64,000 nucleotides of DNA from Mustelus asterias (taxonomy: Eukaryota), in contig NC_135830.1 of the NCBI RefSeq assembly GCF_964213995.1, positions 12,462,001-12,526,000 on the forward strand, in the 5' to 3' direction. Both the position numbers and the translations under genes were made by a program. The notes beneath the pieces were generated by a model, which saw only the letters and a program-made list of their open reading frames with translations, was not told where the DNA came from and did no database searches. This document shows, piece after piece, positions 11,958 through 62,584 of the stretch; the stretch's first letter is position 1; each line of letters opens with the position of its first letter.

Positions 11958-12379
11958 TCAGCGAGTATTTACAGCTCCACTAAGTTTCCTCCTGCGCGAA
12001 TGCAGTCAGGTCTATTTACCGGGTATTTTGTCCTGATTGCGATCGGCAGAGAAGCGGTTTGGGAAAACTGGATGCAAATCTCCATGCCGCGATTTATGTA
12101 GTAAACAGAAACAATGAGTATCTCGCTACCAGCTGAAGGATGCACTTAGAAGTGGAGTTAATATGGCAGAAATTTGCAGGCTGTTCTTTCTGAATTGTTA
12201 GCTCAACTAAGCCCACGGACACCTGTAACAAAATGCAGAACGGATAAAAATCTACTGTCATATTTAACAAATGAGAGGTCGAATAGCCGCCACAGAGACT
12301 CACCCAGCAACACGACTATTATTATAACTCTGGGACACAGAAACTCACCCAACAACACGAAGATAGTCGAGCGTATTGT

Positions 12380-14324: not shown

Positions 14325-14363
14325 GGTTTTTGTACAGTGACTGCCGTATTTCCTCTCAGTGTG
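14325..14363 (-). other. 23-RSS
   Basis: Minus strand CACACTG + 23 nt + ACAAAAACC. Confidence 0.9.
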
Positions 14364-16770: not shown

Positions 16771-17779
16771 ATGCGGATCCCCATTCTCGCTGTGCTCTGG
16801 GCAGCTTTCTGTGTCGGTGAGAAATTTAAAACTTTTAAATGAAGATTAATTTCAGAGAATTAGATTTGAAAAGTAAATCGTCTATTTATCACTTGTATCG
16901 AAACTTGGTCAGACCACATGAGGAGTGTTAGGAAATAATGTCAGGGCACAGGAGAAAATGAGAAAAAAATCTTTAAGAAGGTGATACCGCAATTGGCATG
17001 AGCGAGCTATCAGCAATAATTGTGCTGGTTGAGGTTATTTGATCTCGCAAAGCGAGGTTGGAGGGACAGCCAGACAGAGGTCTTCAAATGTGATTGAAAG
17101 GTGGTTAATAGGTTAGTGCTGCAGAGTACTTTTCACTTCTGGATCATTGATTATGATAAATGCAATGATTCAAAGAGATGCAAAAGGGCATTGTGGACAG
17201 GCCTCCATACACAAAGTGTGTTTATAATCTGTACATCACTACCACAAGGGAAGCGAAATAAAGAGATGATGGAGAAAGAAATGGATGGAAATTCTGAGAG
17301 ATTGAGACGAAGTAAGGCGAATTACGCTCTCTAGGATTTAAAACAGACAGATCAATTTTGTAGAAAGCTTATTTTTCGAAGGTCTGTACTCCAACTTTTT
17401 GTATGTAATACTAACCACTAATTGTCACATTTCAGTTCAGTTGATTATTTGCACTTTTTAAACTGTGTGTTCCAGATCAGAGCGATGGAGATTCTGTTAC
17501 TCAGCGGGAATCCTCACTCACACCGCCAGAGGGAAAATATGTCACTTTAAGCTGCATCTTTACCGACGATGCTGATTATTTATTCTGGTACCGTCATTAC
17601 CCAGGCAGACAGCCCGAGTTTGCCGTCCGCCGGGACCCGAGCAACAGTTATGAATTCAAGGCCGATTTCGCACGGACCCGGTTTTCCGATAGAGTCCAGC
17701 AGTCAGACAAGTTGTACCGATTGACAATCTCGGAGCTGCGGTTGTCTGACACCGCGGTCTATTACTGTGCCCAGAGTCT
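16771..17779 (+). CDS. TRAV/DV: TCR alpha/delta V gene, apparently functional (leader 16771-16816, exon 17476-17779)
   Basis: Leader MRIPILAVLWAAFCV; open exon DSVTQRESSLTPPEGKYVTLSCIFTDDADYLFWYRHYPGRQPEFAVRR...RFSDRVQQSDKLYRLTISELRLSDTAVYYCAQS. Absent from the ORF track. Confidence 0.93.
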
Positions 17780-17818
17780 CACAGTGATGAGAACGAGTGA
17801 GATTCTCGTACAAAAACT
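17780..17818 (+). other. 23-RSS
   Basis: CACAGTG + 23 nt + ACAAAAACT. Confidence 0.97.
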
Positions 17819-22157: not shown

Positions 22158-22736
22158 TCTATTCTCCTCTGTTATATTTCATACCCAGTGGAAAGTTGCG
22201 GAGTGAATGTAGTTTCATTATATACAATTCAGAAATTATGTGGAGATGCTTCATCCGATTTAAAATCGTTGTGTAAATTCGATATGAAATCAATTGCATA
22301 AATAAATACATGTTTACATTGAAAACTATATCAGAAGCTAAATCCAATACCTCCTGCCACTGATTTAGGGAAACTTTTTTACATAAAGCACACTGTGCAT
22401 GGTTTCCACAGAAACTCCTTCTTCAAATGGGGAGTGGATAATGACTTGAAAGGAAGAAAAATCAGCTTCATGGAATGAGAGGAGGAAATTGAGATTATTA
22501 CAAAGAATAGGACTGCACAGGAGCAGGCCCTTCAGCCCACTAAGCCCGCACCGACACATTAGTTGCTTAGCTCCTCATAAAATAATTGGAATAGACCTGA
22601 TGGGTCGAAGGGCCTCTTATCGTTCTCTGCTATTGTCAACCATTGTCAATCATTGTTAGATCAATATGTCCACAGCATTCTTAATGCGTGTTGTAACATT
22701 TCAAGACAGGGCCATTGGGCTCCATGGATGCCAACA

Positions 22737-26366: not shown

Positions 26367-26896
26367 ATGTGTCTGATCACAGTGGCGGCGCTCTTTCACA
26401 GTAAGTATTGGGAAATGATCATCAAGCCAGTTAATATATTAATACACACAGATGGTAATATGATTAACCACCAGAAATATCCACGTGAGGCGCATATGGG
26501 AGGCACCACAAACTATCACAGATACAGGGAATTTTAAATTAACTCTTGATACTTAATTCCTCTACCTTCACAGACAGACTTGCGCAGATCCAGTAACTCA
26601 GTCACTGGTGACAATAACCGCATCAGAAGGCGGTTTGGTGCAGTTACATTGTAAATGTGCAGACAAGGATATTTACAGCATGCAGTGGTATCAGCAGAAA
26701 CCGGCACAGCCACTGAGATGGATTATTAGCAATGCTGAGGGAACATGAAGTTTCAGGACGATATCTGGCGGCTGATGACGACTCTAAACAGAACGGTGAT
26801 CTGAATATAAGCGCCCTCAATATGGAAGACAGGGCGTCTGTTACTGTGCCGTGAGACACAAGCGTTAGATTACTGCTAAAACACCGTACAAAAGCC
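26367..26896 (+). pseudogene. TRAV/DV: TCR V pseudogene paralogous to 11440 (leader 26367-26400, exon from 26574) with degenerate RSS 26857-26896
   Basis: DPVTQSLVTITASEGGLVQLHCK...MQWYQQKPAQP; frameshifts at exon start, CDR2 and before YC; RSS CACAAGC..ACAAAAGCC. Confidence 0.88.
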
Positions 26897-27459: not shown

Positions 27460-28569
27460 ATGCGGATCTCCGTTCGTGCTGTTTTCTGAGTGACATTCAT
27501 TGTTGGTAAGAAATTTCAATCTTAAAAAAGGAGTAAAAAGGAATTTAATCTATAGAGGCTTAAGTTTGAAAAGCGGGATATTAATCTTAAACAAATATTA
27601 GACCTGCTTTAGAGCACAAATGCATGTTTGTGAGTGGCCTTGTTATTTGGAGAATAGATTCTATAAGCTCACTGTAAAGGCAATTTAGAGAGATTGTACC
27701 AGGATTTACTTTTACTTTATAGAGAGTTTTATGAGAGCTATTAGAAAACAATATAAAGATTATGATTAATTTCTCTCCTGGCGAGAAGACTTACGAGAAA
27801 CCTGACTGATTTCAGTACAGTGAGGATCAAATCAAATCAACTAATAGTAAATCAAATCAAAGAGGTTTAGTGTAGTGGACAGGCAGAGGATGATTCCATT
27901 TGGGAAGGATTCGAAATCTATGTCCCAGAAATCTAAGTGAAACAAAAAGATCAACTGGGAATTACAGATAAAGTTCTTTAGAAAGAGTTCTGTAGAATTT
28001 GACTCACATTGACTTAATGAAGTGTTGAGGAGACGAGAAAAGATGCATTTGAGGCAACCTGGAGAAACCCGCTGAGAGGGCTAGGGACAGAGGCATTTGA
28101 CATGAGGCGAGAGGGAGGATACTCCTGGGGATGGTAAAGGGGGACATAGATCAGTTGGAGCGAATGTGCTAGAATTTAATATCTATTTTCATGTTACACT
28201 CTGATTTTTCACCCTCGGTTCAATTGAACTTTCAATCAATGTTTTTTTTCATATCTGTGTTCCAGATCTGAGCGATGGCGATTCTGTTTCTCAGCAGGAA
28301 TCCTCACTCACTCGAACAGAGGGAGAAGATGTCACTTTAAGCTGCACCTATACCGACGATGCTTATTATTTATTCTGGTACCGTCAATATCCAGGCAGAC
28401 AGCCCGAGTTTGCGGTCCGGAGGGACAAGTACGGCGGTGCTGAATTGAAGACGGATTTCGCTCAGACTCCGTTTTCTGATACGGTCCAGCAGTCTGACAA
28501 GTTGTACCTATTGACCATCTCGGAGCTGCTGCTTTCTGACACCGCGATCTATTATTGTGCAGTGAGTCT
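27460..28569 (+). pseudogene. TRAV/DV: TCR V paralogous to 16771; V exon (28266-28569) open but leader (27460-27505) has a stop
   Basis: Leader MRISVRAVF*VTFIV (TGA 27487-27489 where the paralog has TGG); exon DSVSQQESSLTRTEGEDVTLSCTYTDDAYYLFWYRQYPGRQPEF...[10 protein letters not shown]. Confidence 0.9.
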
Positions 28570-28608
28570 CACAGTGATGGGAACGAGTGTAATCCTCGTC
28601 CAAAAACT
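28570..28608 (+). other. 23-RSS
   Basis: CACAGTG + 23 nt + CCAAAAACT. Confidence 0.93.
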
Positions 28609-31092: not shown

Positions 31093-31131
31093 GGTTTGGG
31101 TATGAGCCCCGCGGGAGCCTCATTCACTGTG
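31093..31131 (-). other. 23-RSS
   Basis: Minus strand CACAGTG + 23 nt + ACCCAAACC. Confidence 0.9.
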
Positions 31132-31854
31132 GGTCTCAGTGCACAGTAATACACGGCGCTGTCTGTCATCTTCAAATACATTAAGAAGTCTCACAACACC
31201 AGGTTGAAGTCCAACAGGTTTATTGGCAGCACGAGCTTTCGAAGTCTCAGGCTCCTTCATCAGGTGAATGACTCACTCGCTCACTCACCTGATGAAGGAG
31301 CCTGAGACTCCAAAAGTTAGTGCTGCCAAGTAAACCTGTTGGACATTAGCTTGGTGTTGTGAGACTTCTTACTGTGCTTACCCCAGTCCAACGCCGGCAT
31401 CTCCACATCACCTTCAAATACTTCATGGACAAGTGAAAAGTACTTCGTTTCTGGTTGTGATTCCCGCTGAACGTTTCGAAGCCGGGAGCTGTCTTCTTAT
31501 ATCCATTCCTATCGGCTCTGAGCAGATACTGAGGAGCTTGTTGTGGATACTGGTGATACCAGAACAGGTCATATTCTCTAGCTGAACTCCGTACAGAGTA
31601 ACTGCAACGTGTTGCTGAATCTTCACCCTCAGCTGCTTCAACTCCTGGTTCTGACTGGGCCACTGAGGCACCGTTACTCATCTCTGAAAATAAGCAACGG
31701 GCACACAGTACGTGAGGAGTAAGAGGAAGGGTATAATCACCCAGAGAGGGGAAAAGGAAACTGCACAGGAATCGCAATATATTCTAAGAAGATTCCAGTT
31801 TCACTGACCTGTGTTCAGGATAAAAACCAAAGTCAGGAATATTTTGACCACCAT
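31132..31854 (-). pseudogene. TRAV/DV: Inverted TCR V gene disrupted by an insertion in FR3 (leader 31809-31854, exon 31132-31683)
   Basis: Leader MVVKIFLTLVFILNT; exon ASVAQSEPGVEAAEGEDSATRCSYSV...LFWYHQYPQQAPQYLL...FHLSMKYLK[insert]MTDSAVYYCALR; open if the insert and one TSD copy are removed. Confidence 0.92.
31180..31411. mobile_element. Palindromic Penelope-like insertion with 10-bp TSD and hammerhead core
   Basis: TSD CTTCAAATAC at 31170-31179 and 31412-31421; two inverted units; the minus-strand copy has intact CAC-CTGATGA-AGGAGcctgagaCTTC-GAAA-GC-TC-GTG. Confidence 0.85.
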
Positions 31855-42923: not shown

Positions 42924-42932
42924 TCATTTGAT
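42924..42932 (-). CDS. IGHM: IgM TM2 exon (IK*)
   Basis: ttttacag|ATC AAA TGA, phase 0 after TM1. Confidence 0.85.
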   Translation of the reverse strand: MK

Positions 42933-43072: not shown

Positions 43073-43200
43073 CTTCACCAGAGTGACTGCAGTGCTGTAG
43101 AAAATGCTCAGGAAGAACAGCACTATGAATGTAGAAGCGGTTGTCCAGATGTTGCTGTTATCATCCTCATTGTCGTCAATCCAGACGCGGTCGGTGGAGT
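43073..43200 (-). CDS. IGHM: IgM TM1 exon
   Basis: DSTDRVWIDDNEDDNSNIWTTASTFIVLFFLSIFYSTAVTLVK with the conserved antigen-receptor TM motif; cctag acceptor, gtgag donor. Confidence 0.95.
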
Positions 43201-43769
43201 CTAGGGGACGGAGACCAGGAACTGAAATTAGATTACTTTATTTATCCAGGTGATCTTATTGTTATTTTTTTGTGCCCCGTTCTCCTTTTTAAGCTGTTCA
43301 TTTAATCTCGAATTTAATTTTCAATGTGTATCTACTGTTAAATTCAGGACACTCAGTAACCGATCTCCGTAACTATTTTCACACCTGATTTTTATTGACA
43401 TTCCTTGGACAGTCCATGTCAGAAAACACTGAAGATGTTTAATTAAGTATCAGTTCATTTTTGAACTGTTTGCCACTATCCCTTATTGAAGAATGTTATG
43501 ACTGATATTGAGAAACGTTCACTGATCAATGATTGTTTTCACAGATGGTTACTGATCTGTAAACTGTAAATGTTGTTGTTTAAGAGTTGGGATGTATTTT
43601 CCGATCTGTGCTTCTTTATGGTGGAAATAGGTCATGAGCTTAATTCAGCTTCTCAATGTGTTTGTCTGTTCATTGTACATTGGGATAGTTAATCTGTGGA
43701 TATGTGCATTAAAAAATCACCTTTAAATTTTACATTCATCATTTGCCTACCGTTTGTATTTAAGATCTT

Positions 43770-44624
43770 GCGTTTGTGTGCGTGTGCATGAGCATGTTCT
43801 GGTCTGCATTAATCTTTGACTTTGAGTTAATATGTGTGCAACAGTGTTAAGGTACGTGTTCATTTGCCTATGGTTGTTGATTTGTGAAGTTGTGTGTCTG
43901 CATCTGTGTGTATATTTTATTCTTGTCTTTGTGTATGTATGACTCTATTATTGTGTGAAGTCTATGAATATTTATTAATGCCATTCTTAATGGGTGCACA
44001 TGTGTTTATGCCTATTGCTATGTGTTAATTTCTGTCGCTCTCGTAATGTTTGTTTCCCTTACTGTGTGCGTCTGTTTCTCCGTGTGTCTGTGTGCATGTC
44101 TGTTAACAGGTCAGTACATGTATATACGTGTTGATAGCTCTTTATAATGGTGAGTTGATGTATGTTTGTGTTTCGATGTGTAGTAATGTGTGCTATGGTG
44201 TTCTGTTCTGTATGAGCATGTTAATGTTTGCGTCTACATGTTTGTGTGTAAATGTTTTGCAGTCTGTTCATCTATATGCAGTCTGCTAATTTGTTTATAT
44301 ATATTTCCATGCATGTTTGTTAATGTGTATAACATTGTGCGTCTTTATATCTATATTTCTGTCAGCGTAAATGTGTGCTAATATATATATATATTTATTT
44401 GAGTCTATGTATGTGCTTGTGTATTTATGTGGGTCTGCATGCGTGTGTATCTGTCTGTATTGTGTCTCTGCATGTATGTGTTTGGGTCTGTGTACCTACT
44501 CACGTGTGTGTCTGTGTATGTACTTGTGTGTTTTATGTGTATATGTGTGCGTTTGTACATATTTGATTATCTACGTATGTTGTTGTTTTAGTGCCTGTTC
44601 GTACAAGCGCGAGTCTATGTATCC

Positions 44625-44693
<69 letters not shown>

Positions 44694-45570
44694 TGTGTGT
44701 GTGCCTATGTATATTTGTGTACGGATGTATTTATGTATGGGTGTATTTTTGTGTGGGTGTATTTGTGTCTGTGTGTATTTGTGTGTGTATTTTTGTTTGT
44801 GCCTGCATTGTCCATGAGTGCATTTGTGTGTGCATTCTTGTTTCTCTGCATGTGTGTTCGTTTGAGCAAGTACTGCATGTACCTATGGTGTGTGAAAGTG
44901 TATCTGTGTGTATGCATGGATCTGTGTGTTTTTGTGCATGTGTATGTGCTGTGTATGTGTGCTTCTATGTCTGTACTTGAATGCGCCTGTCCGTATTTCT
45001 GTATATGTGCATGCATTTGTGTGTGTATTTACATGTGTCTTTCTGCATTTGTGTGCATTTTGTGAGTATGTGTATTTGTGCATTTGTGTCGATGTGTCTG
45101 TGTGTGCTTGTGTGTGTGTGTATGTGTACGCCTATGTGTGTATTTATAATTGTGACAGTTTTGTGCGGTATTGTCAGTGTGTGTATTTTTTAACTGTTGC
45201 TTCAAGTTTCACTGGCAATCATTAACTGAACATGATCCAAACAATATGAATAATGGAGCATATTTTCCGTGTTTGCTGTAGAAATTTCTTTTATGTGAAT
45301 GGCACGGTGATATCAGGAGAGCGAATGAAATAATTCATTGATGCATCTCAGAAACCTCAGTGACAGAACAGTGAAAACCGGGGAGGATTCTATTATTTGT
45401 TTAAATTTGTATCATGGGAAATCAATGCCAGCACATGATTAACAGGAACAAGAGTGTTGAAACATTTTTAAACTATGTTGCATAAGTATATATGTATATA
45501 AGTATACATTCATATATATATATATATATATATAAGTATATATATATAAGTATATGTGTATTATATACTT
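43770..45570. repeat. Degenerate (GT)n/(GA)n/(AT)n microsatellite tract in the Cmu4-TM intron
   Basis: Long TGTG-rich low complexity, pure (GT)n(GA)n at ~44630-44690, (TA)n at ~45480-45570. Confidence 0.9.
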
Positions 45571-46311
45571 CAATGACACTTTGATAATGATAATGATACT
45601 TCAAAGTCTGCAGCAAGTAAACGGAAGCTAATTTGTACTGTTGACAACTGAGTCCTTATAGTCGAGAGCCGTTCCCTTCCAAACACGCTACTTGGGGAGA
45701 GGGAGGAGAGTGAGCTCATAGTTTACCTCTCTCTACCTGGTGAAGCAATGTGCCTGATGGTTCTAACCACTGAGGAGGTGGAGGTGAATGGATTAAATAA
45801 TGCCATTCCTCCTGCTTTCGTTGAGGAAGTGATGGTACATGGGTTAGCTACTGCTCCTCCCCTCTCTTTGTTGGGTGAGTAGGAATCCGGTATGTTAACA
45901 ATTTCACTCTCCCTCTCTCTGATGGGGGGATTGTTGCTCCATGTTTCTGTGTGACCCTCACTTCAGTTCCCAGTGGGTGTGGTGCAGCAGCTTAAATATG
46001 ACATCAATGCGTAAAGGCATGGACAACGAGAGAAGCAGGAACACCGAGATCTAAATGTTGTGTTTGTTTGTCAGAAATGTTGAAATTGTCGGAGTTTTCC
46101 TCAGGGAGGAAAGTCGGTGAAGATATTTTGCAGAATCCTGTAATGAATGCGCTCCACTCTGTCTCTAACACAGGGTCTGTCTGAGCTGGGCGCACTGGTT
46201 CAACAAGACCTGAAAATATCTGAGTCAAACCAAAGATAGCTAATGGAAGTAAAACTGAAAAACAATCAATTAAGCGTTTGGCTATTTCATTTGTTGTTAG
46301 AGGAAAAATAT

Positions 46312-46353: not shown

Positions 46354-46745
46354 TCATTGACATGAATTAACGGTGTCCATCAGAGCAAGGGAAATGTTCA
46401 CAAAACTGGGTTTACCGCTGGATTTGTCAACTGTTCTGTTGATGATCTTCAAGGGGATGGCTTCATGTCCCACCACACAGGAGTAAGAAGCACCGCTGGA
46501 CCATTCCTCTGCTGCAATGGATAACAGGCTGTACATGAAGAAGGAGCTATTCCCGCTCTCCGCGACCACCTCGGTGTTCTTATAGTTCCCAGGATTCACC
46601 GGCTTGTCGTTGACGGTCCACTTGACGAAGATCTCTCGAGGGGAGAAACGTCTCACTAAGCAGCTGAGGGAGACGAATCTCTGAGCGGAGACTTCTTCTG
46701 CCGAGGGCAAGAGGACAGAGACGAACGGTTCCCGCGGATTTGGAT
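46354..46745 (-). CDS. IGHM: IgM Cmu4 exon plus secretory tailpiece
   Basis: [36 protein letters not shown]...[23 protein letters not shown]|[20 protein letters not shown]; internal donor G|GTAAA at 46416 for TM splicing; penultimate Cys. Confidence 0.97.
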
Positions 46746-47240: not shown

Positions 47241-47549
47241 CTGTTTCCTTGTGGATGGATTTTCTTAAAGGAGTCGGCAGATCCTGATGGCTCACCACGC
47301 AGTCAAACACAGCCGCACTCAGCCAGGCTTGTGTCGAGACGTTTAATTTGCTGACCACGCTGTCAGGATCCGCTCCAGGCTTTTCGGCAATCTCTGATTT
47401 CAAATACTTCCTGTCTCGGATCCAGGATACGTTGACTCCATAAGGAGCATTAGAAATGATGCAGGTTAAGGTCACTGTTGCCTCCAGTAAGACCTGTTCT
47501 ATTGGTGGTGGCTGTATCGTCACTGTGGTATCAGGGCACTGGGGAGGAT
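47241..47549 (-). CDS. IGHM: IgM Cmu3 exon
   Basis: [30 protein letters not shown]...VSW...[22 protein letters not shown]; AG/GT phase 1. Confidence 0.97.
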
Positions 47550-48462: not shown

Positions 48463-48774
48463 CCAGAGATCCGCTGATGTTCTGACTCTGAGTAAATCCT
48501 TGATGAGTGACCTGGCAGGTATAGACCGCTTTGCTGAACCATTCCTGAGCGGAGACTGTCAACCGACTGCTGGCCGAGAAGTTCCCATTCACTTCACAGG
48601 CGGGAGAGGTGACAATTCCTGAATTCATGGGTTGTCCATTCTTCAGCCACTTCACCGTCATTGACTTTGGCTGGAAATCAATGATTGAACAGACGATGGT
48701 TGCAAATTTTCTGCTGGTGATTTCTTCACTGGAACTCACGGTGAGGATAACGGTTGGGGTGATAACGATTGGGC
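48463..48774 (-). CDS. IGHM: IgM Cmu2 exon
   Basis: [47 protein letters not shown]...[20 protein letters not shown]; AG/GT phase 1. Confidence 0.96.
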
Positions 48775-48884: not shown

Positions 48885-49600
48885 TTGGTTGAATTGGCAG
48901 GGAAATGGCGAATGGAATTCAACCGTCAAAAGTGCCATACAATGCATTTGGGGAGGGAAAACAAAGCAAGGCAATAAACTGGAATGTTAAGAGGGATTGA
49001 GGAAATGCAAGACCTTAGAGAGCACGTCCACAGGTCCTGGTAGATGGTAGGGCAGCTGGAAAAGTTGATCAAGAAAGCATATCGGATTAGTTCCTCTGTT
49101 ATGTGAGATATTGAATGCAAAAACAGTGATACAATGATGGAGATGCTTAAAACCGAGTTTGGCCACGTTTGGAGGTTGCTGTACAGTTCTGGTCACCACG
49201 TTGCAGGAATAACGTAATGACTCTGGAGAGAGATGAGGTTTACAAGAATGTTGCCAGGGACTGAAAATTCCCGCCATGAGGCGAGATTGGATAGGCAGGG
49301 TTTGTTCTCTTTAGGAAAAGAGGAGGCTGAGGCGTGACATAATTGTGGTTCACAAAATAATAAGGGACGTAGGCAGAAATAATTCATTCCCCAAGTCGAG
49401 GGCTCAATTACCAGGGAGCATGGTCATTTAAAAGGCATCTGGGTCTGCATCTCAAGTGCTTTAAGCTGCAATGCTACGGAGCAAGGGCTGGAAAATAGGC
49501 TTACTTTGTCAGGCTAGTTTATTTGTTCTCCCTTTTGGCCAGCACAGACATGATGGGCTAAATGGCCTCATTCTGCACAGTAACATTTCTGTTGTTCTTT
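48885..49600 (+). mobile_element. Old CR1 fragment in the Cmu1-Cmu2 intron
   Basis: tggcgaatggaattcaa...cagttctggtcaccac...aggtttacaagaatgttgccaggga; degenerate. Confidence 0.75.
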
Positions 49601-49745
49601 GGTTCTGAGCAACTTTTCAGTCAGGAGGCACTTACCTGGATTTTGCATAATTCAATTTTTCAGAGTGCTACATATCAGTTATAACTAAAGCCTTATACAG
49701 TTCAATCAGAGCGTTCCTGTCTTGCCCAAGTTCCACAACACTTAC

Positions 49746-50045
49746 ATTGCATTCCAATGCTCTTGACTGAGTCGCGGTGTCGAACCTCACACTTGATTTT
49801 GCTGCACTCTCCCTCTGACTGGGTGATGGTTAACTGGCTGCTCAAGGTGTAAGTTCCCTTTGCGTTTCTCACTGATGGATAATTCTTAAATCCAGTGTCG
49901 ATCAGCTGCCCATTTTTCTTCCAAGTCAGTTTGGAGACATCTGGAGAGTAGTCCATCGCCAAACAGCCGTAGGTGATGGAGCCAGCGGAGTTGTGTTGCT
50001 GACAGGAAGAGACGAGGCTGTAGAGAGTGGGCGGAGACGGTGTCG
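49746..50045 (-). CDS. IGHM: IgM Cmu1 exon
   Basis: [46 protein letters not shown]...[17 protein letters not shown]...KCEVRH; typical shark Cmu1; 300 nt, phase 1. Confidence 0.96.
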
Positions 50046-50552
50046 CTGGGAAAGAATAGTCGATTCAACAAGTTAGACTATTACCTGCGTTTATTAATTA
50101 ATCAAACATATTTATACAAGTATGTTTCTATATTAGGTATAGCTCTTGGGGCTAAAGGGATCAGTGGATATGGGTAGTAGGCGGGGTCAGGATATTATTG
50201 AGCCATGATCAAAGTGAATGGTGGAGCAGGGTCAAGGGGCCGAATGGCCTCCTCCTGCTTCTATTTTCTATGTTTCAACGTCACGATTTGACTAGAATTA
50301 TGAACTTAAGTGAATATTTCCCGATTAAAACCTACGCACACCTTTGAGCTGCTGTTACTCCTATCAGTTGGGAATCGCCATTTTTGTAGAAACTCACATC
50401 ACTGTCACCACCTCTATCAGATTGGAAAGACAAAAACATTTTGATGTCATCGTAATGACATACCATTCATTGGATTAACAGAGAAGAGTAAAGACTTTCT
50501 CCATTATTTCAGGCACTACCTATTTCTCAAACAACAGCACGTTGTGATGACG

Positions 50553-50932
50553 TAGGTTCTTTACCCAGAGGGTGGTGAGGGATTGGAATGCCCTGCCAGC
50601 ATCAGTTGTAAATGCGCCTAGTTTGGGGGCGTTTAAGAGATCCGTAGATAGGTTCATGGACGAAAAGAAATTGGTTTAGGTTGGAGGGTCACAGTTTTTT
50701 TTTTAACTGGTCGGTGCAACATCGTGGGCCGAAGGGCCTGTTCTGCGCTGTAATGTTCTATGTTCTATGTTCTATGTTCTATGAAGAAGTTGTCTCTTCA
50801 TTCATATCAGCCACTCACCTGATGAAAGAGCTCCAAAAGTTCGCAATTCCAAATAAGCGTGTTGGACTTTAACCTGGTGTTGTGAGACTCCTTACTGTGC
50901 CCACCCCAACCTAACGCCGGCATCTCCACATT
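50553..50932 (+). mobile_element. CR1 3' end (50553-50782) plus degenerate Penelope-like unit (50813-50932)
   Basis: (ttctatg)n tail; cactcacctgatgaa...cgccggcatctccacat. Confidence 0.8.
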
Positions 50933-51254
50933 GTAATTTTTGGATATTGCCTGTGTTCAAACTGACTGATGCCCCTTCCTCTCTCCAACTCACTGCCTCT
51001 CACTCCACAAAACGAAGATTAGTGACTTTCCTTCAGAAATACCTTCGGAATGAATACTTACTGAATGACCAGGAAACTGGAAATGTGATTACAAATTCAA
51101 AAAATTGCAACATTGACTAATTTAAGGGTCGTACATTAATAGCAAGAGTTGACCATTCGGACCCTGAAGTCTCCTCCATAGTTCACTGAGATTACAGATG
51201 ATCTGATTGTGGTGATAGCTCTATTTTGCACCTCCTCACTCCGCCCGTCGATCA

Positions 51255-51930
51255 CCCACTCTCTGCCCATTTTCCCTGGCTCTCTGCCCTTTCCCCTGGC
51301 TCTCTGCCATTCCCTGTGGCTCCTTTCCCCTTTCACCCGGCTCTCTGCACTTCCACCTGGCTCTCGACACTTCCCTCCAGCTCTGTGCCCTCTCCCCCGG
51401 CTCTCTGCCCTTTCCCTCAGCACCCTACCCTTTCCCCCGGCTCTCTGTCCTCTGTCCCTGCTCACTATTCTCTTTCCCCTTTCCCATGGCTCTCTGTCCT
51501 TTCCCCCGGCTCTCTGCCCTTCCCCCCTGACTCTCTGTCTTTCCCCCTGACTCTCTGCCCTTTCCCCAGGGCTCTTTTGCACTTTTCGTCGGCTCTCTGT
51601 CCTTTCCCCGCCCTCCTTGCCCTTTATCCTGGCTCTCTCCTCTTTCCCTGATCTCTCTGCCATTTCCTCCATCTCGCTGCCTTTTCTCCTGTTTCTCTGC
51701 CCTTTCACCTGGCTCCCTGCCCTTTCCATTGGCGCTCTTTCCCATTTCTCCTGGCTCTCTGCCCTTTCTCCTGGCTCTCTGCCCTTTCCCCCTGCTCTCG
51801 GCCCTTTCCCCAGACTCTGTGCCCTCCCCCCCCCCCCCCCCCCCGCCCCCAGCTCTCCGCCCTTTACCACGCCTCCTGTTCTCCCCGGCTCTTTGCCATT
51901 GTCCTTGGCCCTGAGCCCCCAGGGATTCCC
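51255..51930 (-). repeat. ~20-bp G-rich tandem array in the J-Cmu intron
   Basis: Repeated plus-strand GGCTCTCTGCCCTTTCCCCC (sense strand GGGGGAAAGGGCAGAGAGCC), roughly 30 degenerate units. Confidence 0.9.
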
Positions 51931-52034
51931 TCCAGCTCTCCACATTCCCAGGGCAGCTCCCACATTTGAAGACCAAACTGCTGCTTGAGATCTTTCTTCT
52001 CTCTCATCGCAGACCTCCACACACAGGTTTAGCG

Positions 52035-53180
52035 AGTGTGAGTGAGAGAATGTGAGTGTGTGAGGGTGAGTGATTGAAGGAGTGAAAGTGGATGAGTGAT
52101 GGTGTGTGAGTGATGGAAGGTGGGTAAGTGAGGGTGAGTGATTGAGTGTGAGTGAGTAAGTCTGGGTGAGGGTGAGAGAACGTGAGTAAATGAGGGTGTG
52201 TGAGAGAGGGTGGGTGAGTGAAGGTGGCTGAATGTGTGAGTGAAGGTGGGTGAGTGAGTGTCGGTAAGAGAGAATGAATGAATGAGGGTGAGCGAGTGAG
52301 GATGCGTGAAGGTTACTGAAGGTGGGTGAGTGAGAGCGAGTGAATGAGGGTGAGGAGTGAATGTGACTTAGTAAGTGAGGGTGAGAGAGTGAGTGAGTCA
52401 GGGTGTGTTATTGAGGGTGGTGTGAGAGTGTGTGAGGGAGAATAAATGCGGATGGGTGGATGAGTGAGGGTGAGTGAGTGAAGGTGTTTGAGTGAGGATG
52501 AGTGATTGAGGATCTGTGAGTTAGGGTGGGTGACCTTGAGTGATGGTGAATATGTGAGGGTGTATGAGTGAATGTAGGTGCGTGAGTCTCAGTGAGTTTG
52601 AATGGGTCAGGTGGCGTACGTGAGAGAGAGAGGGTGATTGAGCTTGAGTGTGTGGGGGTGCGTCTGGGTGAGTGAGGGTCGGTAAGTGGGGAGAGTGAGT
52701 GAGGGTGAGTGAGAGTGATTGAGACTGGATAAGTGAGGGAGGGTAAATGCGGTGAGTGAGTGAGAGTGATTGAGACTGGATGAGTGAAGGTGCGTAACTG
52801 GGGTGAGTGAGGGTGAGTGAGAGTGAGTGAGACTGGATAAGTGAGGGTGGGTAAGTAGGGTGAGTGAGTGAGAGTGAGTGAGACTGGGTGAGTGAGGGTG
52901 GGTTAGTGGGATGAGTGAATGAAGGTGACTATGAGTGTTGGTGAGTGACTGAGGCTCTGAGTGAGTGACTGAGGGTTAGTGAGTGAGGTTGAGTGAGTGA
53001 TAGCACGTGATTGTGGGTGGCTGAGTGACAGTGAGTGAATGGGGATGAGTAAGTGAGGATGTGTGAGGGTGAGAGAGTGTGAGTGAGTGCTGGTGAGTGA
53101 ATGAGGGTGTGAGTGTGAGTGAATGAGGGTGAGTGAGTGAATGCGAGTGAGTAAGTGGGGGGGGGGGGGGGGGCGGGGGG
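52035..53180. repeat. (GAGT/GAGGGT)n low-complexity tract ending in poly-G
   Basis: Continuous gagtgagggtgagt-type repeats. Confidence 0.9.
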
Positions 53181-53182
53181 AT

Positions 53183-53490
53183 GGTGGCACGGTGGCACTG
53201 TGATTAGCGCTGCTGCCTCAGAGTTGGATTCCCGACTTGGGTCACTGTCTGTGTGGAGTTTGCAAGTTCCCCCCATGTCTATTTGGGTTTCATTCGGGTG
53301 CTCCTGTTTCCTCCCACAGTCCAAAGATGTGCGGGTTCGGTGGATTAGCCGTGCTAAATTGCGCCTTAGTGTCAGGGTGACTAGTTAGGGTAAATACATG
53401 TGGTTATGGGGATCGGGATTGCTGTTGGTGCAGACTCGATGGGCTGAATGGCCTCCTTCTGCACTGTCGGATCCTATGATTCTATTCTAT
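53183..53490 (+). mobile_element. HE1-like SINE
   Basis: ggtggcacggtggcactgtgattagcgctgctgcctca...ctcccacagtccaaagatgtgcggg...tatgattctattctatg tail. Confidence 0.85.
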
Positions 53491-53519
53491 GATGTCAAGG
53501 ACAGACACTCTGACGTATG

Positions 53520-54780
53520 TGAGATGGAAAGTGTGTGAAAGGGTGTTTGGGTGTGTGTGTGTGAGAGAGAGAGAGAGAGTGAATGTGTGGGAGGGTGCCT
53601 GTGTGTGATAGACTACGTTTGCACGTGTGTAAGACAGTGGGCTGTGCGTGCAAGAGGGGAGAGTGTGTGTGCGAGAAAGGGTGTGTGAGATAATGTGTGT
53701 GTGTGAGAGAGCATGTGTTTGAAGAGTTATTCTTTGTGTGTGATAGTGTGTCTCACCTTGAAAGTGTGTGTGTGGAGGGGCGGGGAGAATGTATGAGAGA
53801 GTACTTCTGTGTGTGATTGAGTGTGTGTTTATGTGAAAAGAAGTGTGTCTATATGAGATACAGGGTGTCTGTGAAAGAGAGTGCGTGTGCTTGAGAAGGA
53901 GGGTCTGTGTGTGGGAGAGAGTGTTGTGTTCATGTGAAAGACAGTGTGTGCGAGAGGGAGTGCCTATTTGAAAGCAAAATAGTAGGTTCATGAGTGTGTG
54001 AAAGTGTGCATGGGATTGCGTGTGAGTGAGAAAGATGTGTACAATGTGTGTGGGTGATAGAAGCAATATTTTTGAGTGTGTGTGTGTGTGTGTGAGCGTG
54101 TGTGTCTGTGACAGAGAGAAAGAGTTTTTGTGTGTGAGAGAGAGGCGTTGTGTGTGGTTTATGTGGGTGAGAGTGTGTCAGACGCATGAGTGCTTTTGCA
54201 CGTGTGTGAGACAGTGGTCTGTGTGTGCAAGAGGAGAGAGTGTGCGTGAGAGAAAGGATATGTGATATCGCGAATGTGTGTGTGTGTGAGAGAGAGTGTG
54301 TGTTTGAAGAGATATTCTTTATGTGTGTGAGAGTGTCTCTGTTCTTCAAAGTGTGTGTGTGCGTGTGTGGAGGGGCGGGGAGAGTGTGAGCGAGAAAAAG
54401 TGTGAAAATTAGACAGAGTGGATGTGTGAGTGTGTGTGAGTGAAATAACGATTGAGAGAAAACGTGTCTGTGATAGGTGGAGTGTTTCAGAGAGATACAT
54501 TGTGTATACATGTGTGTTCGTGTGTGAGAGACGGAGAGAACTGTGGGCGTGTGAGAGAGAGTCTTTGTGAGAGACAGTGTTTGAGAGCAAGATTGTGCGT
54601 ATGTGAGATAATGTGTAAGGGAGTAAGCGTGTGAAAGAGAGAGAAATATGTGCCTGCGTGAGAGAATGCGTGTGGAAGTGTTCGTATGAGAGAGGGAGCA
54701 TGTGAATGAGTGTGAGACGAAGTGAGAGTACGGGAATGTGGGAGGGATAGTGCATGTGTGTGTGTGCGTGTGTGTGTGTG
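53520..54780. repeat. Degenerate (GT)/(GA) microsatellite tract with internal duplication
   Basis: ~53610-53800 recurs at ~54190-54390 (ttgcacgtgtgt..gacagtgg..gtgcaagagg; gtgtggagggcgggggaga-like). Confidence 0.85.
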
Positions 54781-54859
54781 TTTCCTGGCCCCAACACAGT
54801 GACCACGCGCACAGAAACAGAACAGACATAAACGGTGCAACAATCGAGTGCCCAGCAGA

Positions 54860-57800
54860 TAGATCTGTTCAATCTGTCAATTTCATTCAAACTGTTGGAT
54901 TCTAATTGATCAATGGCCAACTTACAACAACAGAAAATTAATAACCTATTTTAAATTAAACTGATATTCATTTCAAAACTCCTTTCGACTGTTAATTATT
55001 CCTCTGTCTCACTTCTCGAAAGCTATGTAAAAATGTAATTTCGCCGAAAATGAGCAATCAAAAATAACAGATTCAGGACAGTTCAATGTCCCTAACAGAG
55101 ATGCGGTGACACAGCAAGAAGTAACCAAATCAAGAAACATTTAGATTGAAAATCATTACCTGATTAGATCTAATTTCTTAATTAAATGTACTCAACAAAT
55201 TAATCAAAGCAAAGCACTTTATCGAGTGAGCACAGCTGAGTAAAGTAATGTTTTGTTTCTGAATACATTTCCGATACAATTGAATATTCTCTAAAACGGA
55301 TTGTATTTTGCACGCCTGTACAATATTCAAGGTAGTTTGTTTTGAATTAATCAGCAGCATTATTATATTTTAAGTTATTGTTAATTACTAGTTAGTTCTC
55401 CTGTCAGCTCATTTGTACTCTGTAATAAAATGGGTTTTCAATCATTCAAAATGTGCTTCTGCCTCCAACATTGTTAAATAATTAGGTTACAATTAAATCT
55501 TAGACAATGTTAAATATAATTTCAAATTACTGAACAGAAACATTCAGACATCTGTCATTCATTTACTTAAATCTAATCACATTGTAATATTTTACTTTTT
55601 CACTTTTACTACAAGTGTCTTATTATAACCTGCAAAAGTGTTAAAATTGCATACTGCTGAATATGTATAGACTGTAACGGCCTGGCAGTTTGAAGTCAAT
55701 AATACTGCTTCCAAGATTTAGTAATTTAGAACATCCATATAACTTAATTACTGAACACATTGTTTAATTAAAGAAGATCTGAATTAAACAGTGCAAACAC
55801 AAAGAGGACAATTGATTCAAATCCTCTGTAACACTAAAACATGATGCAGAATGTAAGTCCAGACTTTTTCTTCATTATAATATTTAATATGAATTAAACA
55901 TAAGGTTCAGATAGAATCAATTCTTCTATTCTGTCATTTATTCTTCCCATAATTCTATCCTGTGTTCAGCAGTAATGGGAGACATGATGTTATTATCAAG
56001 TGCAGAGATAAGATTATTTTTATAGTATTTATAATAGTATAATATTTTTATTTAAATTAATCTTTTTGAATTTCAAGCATTAACTTGTCCATCTCTAGCC
56101 AGTTTCTGTTGACACTTTACTACAATTCAAACACAATTATGTGAACAATTGCATGAGTGTCAGCGAATTCCACCTGTCAGAAAACTCTGTTCGCTCTGTC
56201 AAATTTATTCAAACTGTTTGATTCTAATTGATCTAAGGTCAAATTACAACTGCAAAAAAGTCAATAAAAAATTTAAATTAACCTGATGTTCATTTCAAAA
56301 CTCCCTTCGCCTTTTAACTATCTCTCCCTGTCTGTCTCAAATCATGAAAACTGGGCAAAAATGTATTTTTTCTGAAAATGAGCACCTCAAATATAACAGA
56401 TTCAGGGTAGTGTAATCTCCCTAACAGAGATACAGTGTCTCTGTAAGAATTGTAATTCATGATTTATTTTAATATGTAAGCATCAGTTAACTTGAATAAA
56501 AGTCCAAACATCTAATTATTTTATTTTTCCGAAACCTTTTTCCTTTATCCCTGCAAGAATTTTCAAACGCAGTTTTATTTTCATTTAGCCAGAAAACGTG
56601 TAACCGCTCAGTTTCACAGAGTTGAAACAATACAGAAACAATTGAGAAACACCAAACCATTTCACAAATTTTGAGATGAGATTAGTAATTAATTATCTCG
56701 GTATCCAATTACAAATTACTTGGAAGGAATAATCTGATTGCGACTGCACAGAAAGAAAATGTAATAATCGGATACATAAATTGCCAAAAAGCAACGTCTT
56801 ATTCTGCAAAACTCGTATTCCAGTGAATGCGAACTTAATCTGGGATATAACGACTAATGCAAAGTATCTTGTTGAATTGAGCGCTGCTATGGAAACAGCA
56901 CGTTATCATTGAAATAGTTTCTGGAATTATCACAAAATATTTCCAGCCCAGAAACTTTTCTGGTCATTTTAATTGAACAGAACTATTAGAGGTGATTAAT
57001 GAATAATGATATTAACATAAAAAAATCTTTGGTGAATATGGAGTTATATTGCCGATCAATAATTGTTTGATTTATCTTAATTTCATGATCAAATTGGTTA
57101 ATGAGAAGTTTGTGATTGCAGCAATGACTTAGTGTCCAAGTGAACTTTGTAAGTCATGATTTATTTTAATATTTAAACATTAGTTAAAATTTATAAAAAT
57201 GTTGTGATATCTTGATTTCATTTTTTTCCAAAACCTGCCTGTTTTCTACTACAAGGACTTTCAAACTCAGAGATTCTTTGCATTCAACCAGAAAACGTGT
57301 AACCGCTCAGTGCCGCCGAGTTTAAACAATGCAGAAACAATGCGGAAACACCAAATCACTTCGCAAATTTTAAACTATCATAGAATCTCCTGAACATAAA
57401 CACTCCAAAGCACATCACTGAGGGAATTATTCCGCTTCATGAAGAAGCAGCTCAATTATTCATTCAACATAATAAAATGTAACATTGCAAGAAAATCTCA
57501 ATATCGAATCCAGCAAAACAGCTCTTCACCAAATGTATGAATTATTAAACAAAACAGAAATCTGGAATAATAGCAATAGCATTGTGAAGAGATAGAATAT
57601 ATCCAACACATTAATATGGAAACTTTACCACATTTTATTCATATTGGATCATATTTCAAACATATTTAAACATTTGGATGGTAAAAGCTGCAGCAATCAC
57701 TGAGATTTAACATTGCAGGTTAACCAAATAGTGAATGCAGTGGCAAACTATATTCTGAACAAACTGCGTAAACTGTGATTTAGTTTAACCTGCAATTATC

Positions 57801-58335
57801 AATTATGATTTTCAAAAATGCCAATGGAATAAAGCCTGCCTGATTTCAACATATAATCATGCGTCAAGCAGTTTCAGACGCGAAGACTGTTTGTATTCAA
57901 TCACAAAGTGTGTAACAGCTGTGTCACCGAGATTAAATAATGCAGAATCGCCAAACCATTTCAAAAATTTTACTTATTCAAAGTCACCCAGACCCACAAT
58001 CTCCTCAACAGAAAAAATATATATCACTGAACCCCGCATAATGCAGAAGCAGCTCAATTCTACAAACGCTTTCAATAGAATCAAATGTAACATTGACAGC
58101 AAATCTCAAATTTAAATCCAGCCAATCCGCTCATCACCAAACTAATCAATTATTAAATTAACAGAAATATGTCAGAACCACACCGGCATTGCGAGTAAGC
58201 GGAATATGATCACTCAATTAATACAGAATCTTTAACACATTTTTAAAATATTGGGTTAGATTTCAAATGCGTGTGCAGCAGATGGCACAACCCGCAGCCA
58301 CTAGATGTCACCGAGTTTATACACTGCAGAAACAT
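54860..58335. repeat. Tandem segmental duplications in the J-proximal intron
   Basis: 54880-55130 ~ 56210-56445; cagaaaacgtgtaaccgctcagt block at ~56590 and ~57290 with a third copy ~57900; 57380-57720 ~ 57995-58330. Confidence 0.8.
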
Positions 58336-58634
58336 CGAACTGTTTAACAGAAGTTAGACAGTAACTTTTAAAGTAACCCAGCCACACAATGTCCTCAGCA
58401 GATAAACACCAAAATACAACAACCAAGGATTGAATCCCTCAGCATCGCCTTGTCAATTAACAGTATAATTTTATAACCCCCATTTTCAGCAGAATCACAT
58501 GAAACATTGTTCAGATTTTTAGTACAGAATCCGCCAAACCACATTTCAGTGAACGAATGAATTAATAAAATCGATAAAAAATATAAAACAAAAGCTCAAG
58601 TAAAACAGTTACTAAATAATTGCAAGGTTCTTAC

Positions 58635-58683
58635 CTGCAGTCACCGTCACCATGGTCCCTTGTCCCCAAGTAGTCAAAGTAGT
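58635..58683 (-). CDS. IGHJ: IgH J segment
   Basis: ACTACTTTGACTACTTGGGGACAAGGGACCATGGTGACGGTGACTGCAG|GTAAG; WGQGTMVTVTA; extra T shifts YFDY out of frame. Confidence 0.95.
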
Positions 58684-58722
58684 CACAGTGTCACATTCGC
58701 TTGGCTGGGTCATACAATAACT
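58684..58722 (-). other. J 23-RSS
   Basis: Minus strand AGTTATTGT + 23 nt + CACTGTG. Confidence 0.93.
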
Positions 58723-59048
58723 GGCTCTGCAAAAAATAGACAGAAAAGCCGCCATTATTTTAAATATTCACAAACCTGAGGAAAAGCAAAGTCAATTAAT
58801 ATTCATGAGATTATTATTGTATTTGTGGATACCGTTCGCTCTACATAAATAACCCTTATGTTTTGTATTTCACCGGGTATAACATGAACATGTTATTGAA
58901 AACACCAAATGATAATTGAACAGTTATCATAAATTTTCCATTTGATTCTCGCTGTTTGTACAGAGCTGGGCATAAATAATACAGCACTGCAAATAATGTT
59001 GGATGGTAAAACAGAGCACTGACCCAGTCTCGGTCAATTAGTGCTGAG

Positions 59049-59076
59049 GGTTTTTGTATTGACAGTAACTGATGTG
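59049..59076 (-). other. 12-RSS following the joined VD
   Basis: Minus strand CACATCA + GTTACTGTCAAT (12 nt) + ACAAAAACC. Confidence 0.9.
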
Positions 59077-59567
59077 CCACCCCAGACTCTTGCACAGTAA
59101 TAGATGGCGGTGTCTTCGGTCTTCAGCCTTGTCATCTCCAAAGAGAAGATATTGGTTGAAGTGTCTTTAGACGCAGTAAATCGATCCTTAATTGCTGGGG
59201 CGTAGCTGTTGCTGGATGAAGTACGGTAGTAAACCAGCCACTCCAGCCCCTGCCCGGGAACCTGTCGGATCCAGTACATGTAAGCGCTGCTAAGACTGAA
59301 GCCGCTGGTTTTACAGGTCAGTGTCAGGGAGCCTCCGGGACGCCCTGTCTCTGCCTCTGGCTGAGTCAACACAACCTGCGTCTGGACACCTGTAAAAATA
59401 GATCAAAAAACCCGAGGATTAATCCTGGTGTAATGATTTTTGACTCTGGAATATTACACAGATGGACTAAAACTGAGACAGGAACTGTGGGAGACTTAGA
59501 CAATGAAAAATAACTACTCACCGGATAAGAAAGTCAGCAACAAACTGAGAGAAATCGCCGACCTCAT
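59077..59567 (-). CDS. IGHV: IgM VH gene fused to D (leader 59522-59567, VD exon 59077-59389)
   Basis: Leader [15 protein letters not shown]; exon [48 protein letters not shown]...[32 protein letters not shown] followed by GTCTGGGGTGG and a 12-RSS instead of a 23-RSS. Confidence 0.96.
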
Positions 59568-59658
59568 CCTTCTGGTAAGTTGGGGGAAATGGTTGTGTCA
59601 GGAACTCAATGAACAAACCAACTCCCGGACTGTTGGATTCCGGTCCCAGTGAGCGGCA

Positions 59659-59666
59659 TTTAAATA
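59659..59666 (-). promoter_or_regulatory. VH TATA box
   Basis: TATTTAAA ~92 nt upstream of the ATG; no ATGCAAAT octamer seen nearby. Confidence 0.7.
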
Positions 59667-62584
59667 CCCGGCAGAAGGGGGCGGCTTTCCAGGCACCGTC
59701 GGTTGATTCCCTGCTGGAGGCGGCGACTGGATCCAGGTCCCACCTTCCACACCCCCAACAGAATGGACTTCCAGATTTACAATAGGTTAATATTAAAATG
59801 GACATTTTGTCTGTGTCGGGATATTTGTTTGGCTGAATATGTCCATTGTATTGTCTCCATTATTTCTGATGGTGATATTGCAGTTCATCATTTCTTTATT
59901 TAAAATAACGAATTCCATTGTAAATATGGTGATTTTATTACCACGCCCCCAAGAAGAACACAAATCTAAAAGTGATGAAATTACATTTTTGGAAAATAAA
60001 GAGACCGTCAGTCTATTTTGCAACAATTCCGGGTCTCTGTCATATTACAATAATAAAGCATCATTTATCAGAATAACTTTTACCGATTTCTGTAACTAAA
60101 TGAGGGGGTATGAACAAAGTGATTGCATTTACAGTGTGGATGGCTATCACTGTACAATTTGGGTTTGGAGATGAGAAGAAACTCTCACACAATACAATGT
60201 TTCTCCTTATATTTGTCAAACTGCCCCAATCTCGAAGACAGCTATTTGAAAATAATAAGAATCCTGCCCTCCTGATAATTAAATAGTGAGTTGACAGAGA
60301 AACATAAAGTTCTCCTTCAGCATCCAGATCATTGCAGGTCACTCTATCGGCCACCGGCTGTCTAACATTCGCTGGTATTGCGAACACAAGATATCAGGGC
60401 TTTGCGGCAGATTGCACAATATCACAAGAATAAATGTTTTATCTTCCATTGAATCAGGTTATGAACTGATCATTTCTCCACTTATTGGCAGCTATGATTG
60501 GAACTCTTCAAGAACAGGAATCAGATTATACTGTATAGTAGAATAGGGTGTTAATCAGGTACAAGAGACGCTGCTGTTTAAATGCGATACAGAACGTTCA
60601 GAATATTCCAGGAATTCCCGCTGTTCGTGTCAGTTTTATGATGTTCCCTTAATATGATTTCGATGCATTTTATGCCATTGCACTGATTTCAATTGACTGG
60701 GGAATTGGGACCATCAACATCTCTCTCTCGCATTTCATGAAGTGGTTAATAAACAGACTTTAATTAGTGGAATGACATTTATTTGGAAGTTATTCAAATG
60801 AAAAAGCATCTGGTCACTTTATTGTTTTGCGATACTATTTACTCACATAATGAACAGGCCATTGAATGAAAATATTTGATTAGAATGATTACGATTTAAA
60901 ATGTGTCATTCTTGTGGGAATGAAACATTTATTGTTTAAATGGCTGAATCCCATTTTGTCCGTTTAGGTTCACGCTAATCTGTCCCACAGAGTATTTGGC
61001 AGCAATCCAGCCTTCTGCCAAATGCTCAAAGTTATTGACAGGAAGCATCTGGAGGTGTTGTGCAGCAGAACAAAGATCTGTTTCCTCAGTACTGACCGCT
61101 TGGCTGCAAGCCAACTTAAAACCCTCCACATTGTCAATCAGGCCTATTTATAAATAAATCTACCCAGCAACAGTACTGCAGGCACTTTACTTTTTTTAAG
61201 TTGTAAATCTAGATGAATTTTTCCCATCTCTAAAGAAAGGAATTCCATGCAGCTTCTCTGGCACCCTGTTAGCAACAATGATGATTTTTCCAACACATCA
61301 GGATATGGTGTTAGATGGATAGAAAGAATTACAGGCAAACTGAGAAATGTCTCAGAGAGACGATACATGAACATGTATGTTTGTATTTTCTTTCCCTTTA
61401 TCTTTCCATGGGATGTTTGGATGCAAAGACCGGCACTTTTTGTCTGTCCCAAATTCCCTTGAACTGACTGGTTTTCTCGGCCACTTCTGAAGATATTAAG
61501 AAGTCAGCTATTTTGCTGTCCATCTGGAGTCACATCCTTGTGAGACCAGGTAGCGATGGCAGATTTCACTCATTGGGGAATCAGAGAGGGTCCGATGGTC
61601 GCCATTAGTATCTGTTCCATATTTATTAATTGAATTCAAATTCCACCAGCTGCAATGCTCCGATTTAAATCCCTGTCCCCACATCATTGTCCTGGGCCTC
61701 TGGATCACTGGGCCACTTCAATTAATATTACGTCACCATCTGCGCAAACAATAAATGAATGATTGTGTTGTTGCAGGAATGAATGACCGTTGAATGAATG
61801 ATATGAATATCAGTTGGATGCCTGAATATTTTGATTGAGGAATCAGTGAACGGATTGATGGATGCATTGTTAAATGGTACTGAAAGATGCTGTTCCACAT
61901 TCCCATATTTGTACTTGACTGGTTCATAAATTGAAACAGTTCCTTGATTCCATTTCTGTCAGCCTAATAACTTCAATGCTTCCAGAGGGTCTGGGTGAAA
62001 TCAAACCCGATTTTCGAGGGAGTTAGCAAACTGATCCTCACGAAAAGAAGAGGGCATTTTCCTGCGGCACGGATGGTTCATTTCTCTGCTGATGCTGAAT
62101 ATTCATATCCAAGATCGAAAGAGGGAACATGGTTTGGCTGAGGAGGAAGGATTGTAATATTTGAAACATGTGCAGCAAATCAATCACCATGCCCTCACCC
62201 AAATTAGTGAAGGTAACAAGCTGTAAAATAAATAATGTGGCAACAGATATATTGTGAAACTCACTGGACAACTACAAGTGTTACATTATTTCCCAAAACA
62301 ATGTAATAATGAATCGGGATTTAAAAATTCAGTAAAATCATATTAGGTGCAAGGTAGTGTAATTCATATCATTCCTTTGGAAATCATCACACCAGTTATG
62401 TATCAGGAGTTTAAAGCGCAGAGACTGTTGGGTAGCGACTCATGATCCTCAGTCTGAATTCGTTCAATTTCCCACTGCATTCTGGGACAGATTTTTATCC
62501 TTGTTGACAAAAAGGTCAATACAGTGTCAAGAAATGTTAATATCAATAAATTATTCAAAGCAAAGTTGTACAAAATGAAATACT

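Follow-up and report, generated by a model that had tools for sequence, protein, structure and literature searches.

A probable germline-joined VD exon in an intact IgM heavy-chain cluster of Mustelus asterias, predicted to lie one recombination step from a complete gene

The window, the whole stretch of 64,000 nucleotides analysed here, lies within a 20.4-Mb contig (C71) and carries on its minus strand an intact IgM heavy-chain gene with open leader, V, J, Cμ1 to Cμ4, secretory and membrane exons. A TATA-like element recognised by motif match only (59658..59666) precedes the leader exon (59522..59567; ATG to GT donor, phase 1, from splice and ORF reading), and no octamer was found in the 233 bp scanned upstream of the leader. 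The VH exon up to the joint (59087..59389; Pfam V-set) is 2 nt shorter than the germline V end of unjoined paralogues and shows 71–77% identity to named shark IgM heavy chains. It continues through a junction base T (59086..59086) into the 3' 9 nt of D2 (59077..59085), recognised by comparison with unjoined paralogues, so that V, T and D2 form one VD exon (59389-59077). The JH segment (58635..58683), which has one extra T and a GT donor, is open in its WGQG frame (TTLTTWGQGTMVTVTA). It is followed by Cμ1 (49746..50045; splice and ORF reading, domain search and homology), Cμ2 (48463..48774; splice and ORF reading, with an acceptor common to paralogues), Cμ3 (47241..47549; splice and ORF reading and homology) and Cμ4 with its secretory tail (46354..46745; membrane donor at 46416), for which the best named matches are μ chains. 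TM1 (43073..43221) and the IK-stop exon TM2 (42924..42932; splice and ORF reading) end the gene. With these four Cμ exons, secretory tail and TM exons of its own, the cluster has the make-up of an IgM minicluster. From leader through TM2 all boundaries are GT/AG, the frame is kept and there is one terminal stop; the J–C part shares 90% identity with a named Triakis IgM heavy chain across 448 aa, and 71% with nurse shark μ. No disabling lesion was found in the nine coding segments examined, and inactivation by an exon lesion was thus rejected.

Some details of the constant region vary within the family. TM1 may alternatively use an in-frame acceptor AG located 21 nt deeper (start 43200); the upstream acceptor AG (43221-43200) is found in the window and in one paralogue (L007), while three close paralogues keep only the AG 21 nt downstream. 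The first residues of Cμ2 (48774-48740 in the window) differ in length and sequence among otherwise near-identical clusters. Long purine/pyrimidine-skewed simple repeats occupy 44000-45700 in the Cμ4–TM intron and 50500-55000 in the J–Cμ1 intron.

The interval between V and J is where the gene departs from an ordinary shark cluster. On the minus strand, TGT GCA AGA G (59096-59087) is followed by T (59086), CTGGGGTGG (59085-59077) and the heptamer CACATCA (59076-59070), and after a 12-bp spacer by the consensus nonamer ACAAAAACC (59057-59049). The stretch TCTGGGGTGG therefore comes after the Cys-Ala-Arg codons and a G and before CACATCA (minus strand 59096-59049), exactly as the sequence-only reading had described a joint with a 12-RSS at the VH end. 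The RSS scan placed this D2 3' signal (CACATCA / 12 / ACAAAAACC) at 59049..59076, and the J 23-RSS (CACAGTG / 23 / ACAATAACT) on the plus strand at 58684..58722, where it faces the D2 12-RSS in deletional orientation. The pattern CAC-N16-ACAAAAACC matched once in 54–64 kb, whereas 1,000 mononucleotide shuffles gave 0.003 matches on average. Neither a V 23-RSS nor a free D was found between V and J by the same scan, in agreement with the earlier description, and the distance of about 330 bp to the J signal given there measures 326 bp from nonamer to nonamer, the coding ends being 393 bp apart. From V to J the cluster spans 426 bp, versus about 1,245–1,263 bp in unjoined paralogues. Hence the V and D2 coding ends are fused, the V 23-RSS and the D2 5' RSS are gone, and the D2 3' 12-RSS and the J 23-RSS remain opposite each other, which is the configuration of a VD-J cluster. 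The leader+VD translation is open to ...YYCARVWG.

A DNA search of the window's genome yielded at least 71 matches from the best 40 of 201 candidates, and 39 deduplicated loci were classified: 24 unjoined, ten VD-J, three VD1-D2-J, one V-DD-J and one VDJ. The unjoined clusters show the layout V-23 / 12-D1-22 / 12-D2-12 / 23-J, in line with the known V-23 / 12-D1-22/23 / 12-D2-12 / 22/23-J arrangement of shark IgM clusters. Pattern searches returned at least 54 V segments with an intact 23-RSS, at least seven V-D2 joints (and three divergent ones), at least six V-D1, at least two D2-J and at least one VDJ joint, counts that may be inflated by haplotype duplicates. They are all lower bounds, since one degenerate pattern gave 0 where its own stricter subset gave 7, which was taken as a false negative. 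At least 20 loci are joined, with 15 joint types, versus some 51 further clusters in which the V signal is intact and the D-J parts were only partly checked. In trees, the VD-J state required at least four changes on the starred branches for the V side and five for the D2-J side. Because conversion blurs such trees, one V-side row (L073) is misaligned and four loci (L005, L006, L065, L066) have no normal upstream region, we used them only as support for several origins, and as such they are consistent with VD-J joining having arisen several times in this genome.

Several of the other joined loci deserve mention. One (L028; G000:C166:443077-443136) is a full VDJ reading CARHV..., with D2 barely represented and a P-nucleotide-like GT after an intact V end. 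Another (L007; G000:C91:2457254-2458745) is the V-DD-J cluster, in which 12-RSSs flank a single fused D of 10 nt; collinearity with the window is greatest for this cluster's flanks (41–71 kb), yet its joint is different. Descent of the window's joint from this sister was rejected because the sister's D is without the CT that the joint keeps. L005/L006 and L065/L066 (C1007, C1179, C1012, C325) include both VD-J and unjoined clusters whose V exons are identical, apparently another and very recent join, and their upstream sequence fails to align to the normal leader region. The VDD-J joints of L003 (C91:2408957) and L005/L006 are nearly alike, with two differences in 24 nt, and belong to different J subfamilies; a single event that conversion then spread, or trimming that converged, could account for this likeness. 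In L113/L114 (C143:782244, C971:53272) D2 is joined to J, the V signal is intact, and one joint is found in two contigs.

The 24 unjoined loci allowed the window's joint to be parsed base by base. Their V segments end in one of two ways (...AGAGAC or ...AGACAC), and they carry five D1 types, the commonest being ATACAGCAGTGGGT, and three D2 types, the commonest being ATAACTGGGGTGG, with a D2 length of 13 nt in 16 of the 23 paralogues read. Aligned with them, as had been proposed for a check, the joint parses as V–D2 at both coding ends: 7 nt of V after the Cys codon (a loss of 2 nt), T, and 9 nt of D2 (a loss of 4 nt). An equally short alternative is a join of V and D2 over a common AC that is free of N nucleotides, has the same length and lies one substitution from the observed joint. 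The T may accordingly be one N nucleotide, a later substitution in the AC-overlap join, or a remnant of D1. The claim that D1 is essentially absent held, the best D1 match at the joint being 3 nt at most versus 7–11 nt of D1 kept in four other VD-J joints (L003, L004, L005/6, L084).

Direct pairing of a V 23-RSS with a D2 5' 12-RSS is permitted by the 12/23 rule, and one step is therefore the simplest reading; a single direct V-to-D2 join fits the parsed joint best. Two-step joining in the germ line, V to D1 and then D1 to D2 with D1 trimmed to 1–3 nt, is an alternative to this step only and compatible with all the rest. We consider it unlikely, though worth keeping in mind: T, GT or AGT of the joint do occur in D1, the D1 remnants in the four other loci indicate that two-step joining occurs in this family, and VDD-J is a common somatic intermediate in the nurse shark (PMC2435157). 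It would nevertheless call for two rare events and for at least 11 of the 14 D1 bases to be lost, whereas a one-step join leaves at most one base unexplained. A deletion independent of RAG, by replication slippage or end joining, could exploit the 2-nt AC overlap between V end and D2. This we regard as hardly credible, given that the ends lie within 2 and 4–5 nt of the RSS cleavage sites and that all 15 joint types in the genome sit at segment coding ends.

Homology-guided joins are typical of cells poor in TdT, and the direct V-to-D2 join, made with one added base or over an AC overlap, likewise implies little TdT. The 0–1 N nucleotides at the joint match the little or no N addition of germline joints, those of light chains being described as showing little evidence of TdT (PMC2193156). 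Counting N nucleotides automatically across the joints breaks down wherever D1 has substitutions, and no genome-wide N statistic is therefore claimed.

Whether the joint is inherited or stems from a lymphocyte was judged from its copies in the assembly. A 26-nt pattern spanning the joint matched twice in the genome, in the 20.4-Mb contig C71 and in a 3.0-Mb contig (C87), while the reversed control gave 0 matches. The two copies share a near-identical block (approximately 49587..60587 in the window, from alignment), with 0/512 differences in leader+V and 6/4,187 downstream, all six lying no more than about 450 bp from the D2 signal. Outside about 49.6–60.6 kb the contigs differ at 5–33 positions per 500 bp, and collinearity with C87 does not extend to the window's left, TCR-V-bearing part. 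The copy on C87 may be a paralogue or a structurally different haplotype. Five of the six differences are alleles present in other paralogues, which argues for exchange between paralogues and led us to reject somatic hypermutation as their source. A single lymphocyte clone would not produce two copies with such differences, nor would a collapsed repeat account for them. The joint thus behaves as genomic sequence, multi-copy and exchanged with paralogues, and the comparison of the copies points to inheritance.

A somatic rearrangement or an assembly artefact in the consensus would be favoured by the unknown source tissue, the highly repetitive family and the frequency of VDD-J intermediates in shark thymus (PMC2435157). 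We nevertheless judge it very improbable, both from the two copies and from the character of somatic nurse shark joints, which are described as unique and bearing N/P additions (PMC2435157). Public-run contigs over 58900-59300 (four runs, each with less than half of the stretch's words) included none bridging the joint among the 27 of 146 pieces listed, both unjoined sides being loose ends; such contigs show presence only, and all 20 runs listed, no RNA run among them, held less than half of the stretch's words.

The joint might also have been formed between clusters, with V from one resembling a cluster at 13.53 Mb on C71 and D2-J-C from one resembling the unjoined cluster on C173. The V CDR2 marker is exact in three loci (both joined copies and C71:13.53) and the J marker occurs in four (both joined copies, C91:2.457 and C173), and no unjoined locus with both markers was seen among the loci found. 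On the V side the nearest relative is the unjoined cluster 1 Mb away (15/512 differences), on the D2-J side it is C173, and one interlocus case is described in 58 thymic VDD-J clones (PMC2435157). However, in a control the V-side and D2-J-side nearest neighbours disagreed in 19 of 23 unjoined clusters, so mosaics are the background norm; moreover, the precursor would itself have been consumed by the join. We therefore dropped inter-cluster origin as the lead explanation and consider it improbable.

The ability of the VD exon to complete its assembly depends on the D2 signal and on J. The sequence-only reading had noted that CACATCA keeps CAC and is non-consensus. Scoring of the RSS bears this out, with three departures from consensus, CACA kept and a perfect nonamer, and adds that the deviation is family-wide: of 38 loci, 23 have CACAGCA as the D2 3' heptamer, 11 CACAACA and four CACATCA, the consensus occurs in none, and the nonamer is perfect in 34 of the 38. 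J carries one T more than most paralogues, before WGQG. This T puts YFDY out of frame and changes YFDYW to TTLTTW with the WGQG frame still open, so that the Tyr before Trp, present in six of eight named shark heavy chains, is removed. CACATCA and the extra T co-occur in the two joined copies, in the V-DD-J cluster on C91 and in the unjoined cluster on C173. Their presence in an unjoined cluster implies that they are older than the join or shared by conversion, and comparison across loci identifies CACATCA as an inherited family trait, not decay after joining. The unjoined C173 sister differs from the window at 10/4,186 downstream positions, which suggests that the join is recent or that the region has been homogenised.

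A precise D2-J join would be out of frame and meet a stop, so trimming or addition is needed. In simulated D-J joins under a model of uniform trimming and addition, which indicates feasibility and not rates, 6,400 of 19,250 kept the frame, of which 6,230 had no stop; 6–12 residues lay between Cys and Trp. The earlier claim of an in-frame CARVWG start stands as far as the frame is open; the residues are fixed only where the last join leaves them untrimmed. Use of the D2 3' RSS in this family is on record in the D2-J joint of two loci and the full VDJ of one, joints which do not reveal the heptamer variant used. None of 23 related proteins contained a CARVWG product, a weak test given that the protein set was clustered at 90%.

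The VD joint could be inherited and the gene still be a silent passenger, its completion or use prevented by poor accessibility, the altered J or the weakness of its 12-RSS. The three heptamer mismatches and the extra T in J speak for this, the open frame may reflect just recent origin in clusters that are copied and mosaic, and PMC2193156 reports that earlier work failed to detect expression of the joined H chains of the horn shark. We find it rather unlikely, since CACA and a perfect nonamer are kept, the coding segments are free of lesions, and a family in which not one D2 3' heptamer in 38 loci is consensus evidently works with such sites.

Taken together, the results favour, with a probability of roughly 0.72, an intact IgM cluster in which V and D2 were fused by one ancestral germline RAG act and which is predicted to finish by a single D2-to-J join. 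RAG would have acted on the V 23-RSS and the D2 5' 12-RSS as a direct pair, deleting about 0.84 kb including D1, and the ends would have been joined with one added base, or over the common AC with one substitution later. Unequal crossing-over or gene conversion would then have copied the joint-bearing block of about 11 kb into a second cluster context, and patches of paralogue sequence would later have altered the D2-J spacer. In a B-cell precursor the 12-RSS is predicted to pair with the J 23-RSS. Roughly a third of such joins would keep the frame and yield short CDR3s, CARVWG-(G)-TLTT-W for example, in which one junction varies and not three. The original proposal of a germline-joined VD one step from a full heavy chain is supported and agrees with all tests made, with the joint at RAG coding ends, two genomic copies and open downstream exons. 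A germ-cell RAG origin and low TdT have been described for germline joints (PMC2193156). We offer only as a doubtful extension that germ-cell RAG activity on H clusters is recent and recurrent in this shark lineage, making TdT-poor microhomology joins that include skips of D1, and that conversion spreads the resulting cassettes as working one-junction IgM genes with short, semi-fixed CDR3s used preferentially early in life.

The window also resembles the IgH/TCR alpha-delta complex (PMC12227049) in having TCR alpha/delta-type V exons between IgH clusters; joined IgM clusters are not treated in the part of that paper covered here. These exons, labelled alpha/delta from motifs and PDB matches, lie on the plus strand at 3267-3664, 11590-11958, 17445-17818, 26557-26896 and 28205-28608 and on the minus strand at 31093-31460. 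They have RSSs with spacers of 22–24 bp, and 12–40 kb separate them from the IgM TM exons. Three of them are open (ends at 3626, 17780 and 28570) and three contain stops (ends at 11920, 26857 and 31131). A good 23-RSS (CACACTG / ACAAAAACC; 14325-14363, minus strand) and a weaker 12-RSS (22389-22416, plus strand) were also seen; neither has a recognisable V frame within 330 bp upstream. The V of the IgM cluster is not a TAILV, a free IgH-like V with its own RSS and without IgH D-J-C, as its 23-RSS is absent and it has its own J and Cμ. Having lost this signal, it should be barred from the usual route of joining to TCR delta D segments.

Partially germline-joined IgM clusters were reportedly found in the horn shark by Kokubu et al. 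in 1988. Published accounts credit the horn shark with the first description of such elasmobranch clusters, and describe many shark IgM clusters as partly (VD-J, VD-DJ) or fully germline-joined through germ-cell RAG, with a suggested advantage early in life (PMC5192425, PMC4279169). The half-joined VD-J IgM class is thus long known, and it is common in this genome. A literature search, confined to main texts and including few subscription journals, returned no paper that describes a germline V joined directly to D2 or a genome census of joined H chains.

Among nurse shark genes, IgM1gj is likewise a germline-joined IgM-type heavy chain, but it is a fully joined VDJ without Cμ2 (PMC5192425, PMC4279169), whereas the gene in the window is only half joined, its C domains number four and its V is 62% identical to IgM1gj; identity with IgM1gj was rejected since D2 and J are unjoined and Cμ2 is present and open. 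The somatic VDD-J intermediates of nurse shark lymphocytes share the configuration and size class but are unique to clones and carry N/P additions, in contrast to the multi-copy genomic joint with 0–1 N (PMC2435157), and for these two reasons this identity was rejected as well. The NS4 light chains offer a parallel in several independent joins among close paralogues, with trimming and little TdT; they are, however, fully joined VJ light chains with demonstrated neonatal expression, while the window gene is a half-joined H chain (PMC2193156).

The closest likeness is to the horn shark VD-J class, in which V and D are fused, the V 23-RSS and free D are gone, a 12/23 pair leads to J, the cluster has its own Cμ, and joined clusters are mixed with unjoined ones in one genome. 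The differences are that D1 was apparently skipped and that the joint is present twice here. Near-identical unjoined sisters, moreover, made it possible to parse the joint base by base, whereas horn shark H joints are described as hard to dissect (PMC2193156). The same source recounts that the horn shark work left completion and expression of partly joined H genes in doubt, and that the importance of H genes joined in whole or in part came into question. The window gene provides material for such a test: it is intact, its unjoined sisters can serve as controls, and its private V variants, CARVWG prefix and extra T in J form a barcode by which its products could be identified. Beside it, the 15 joint types of this genome constitute a natural series on the behaviour of germ-cell RAG at H-chain genes.
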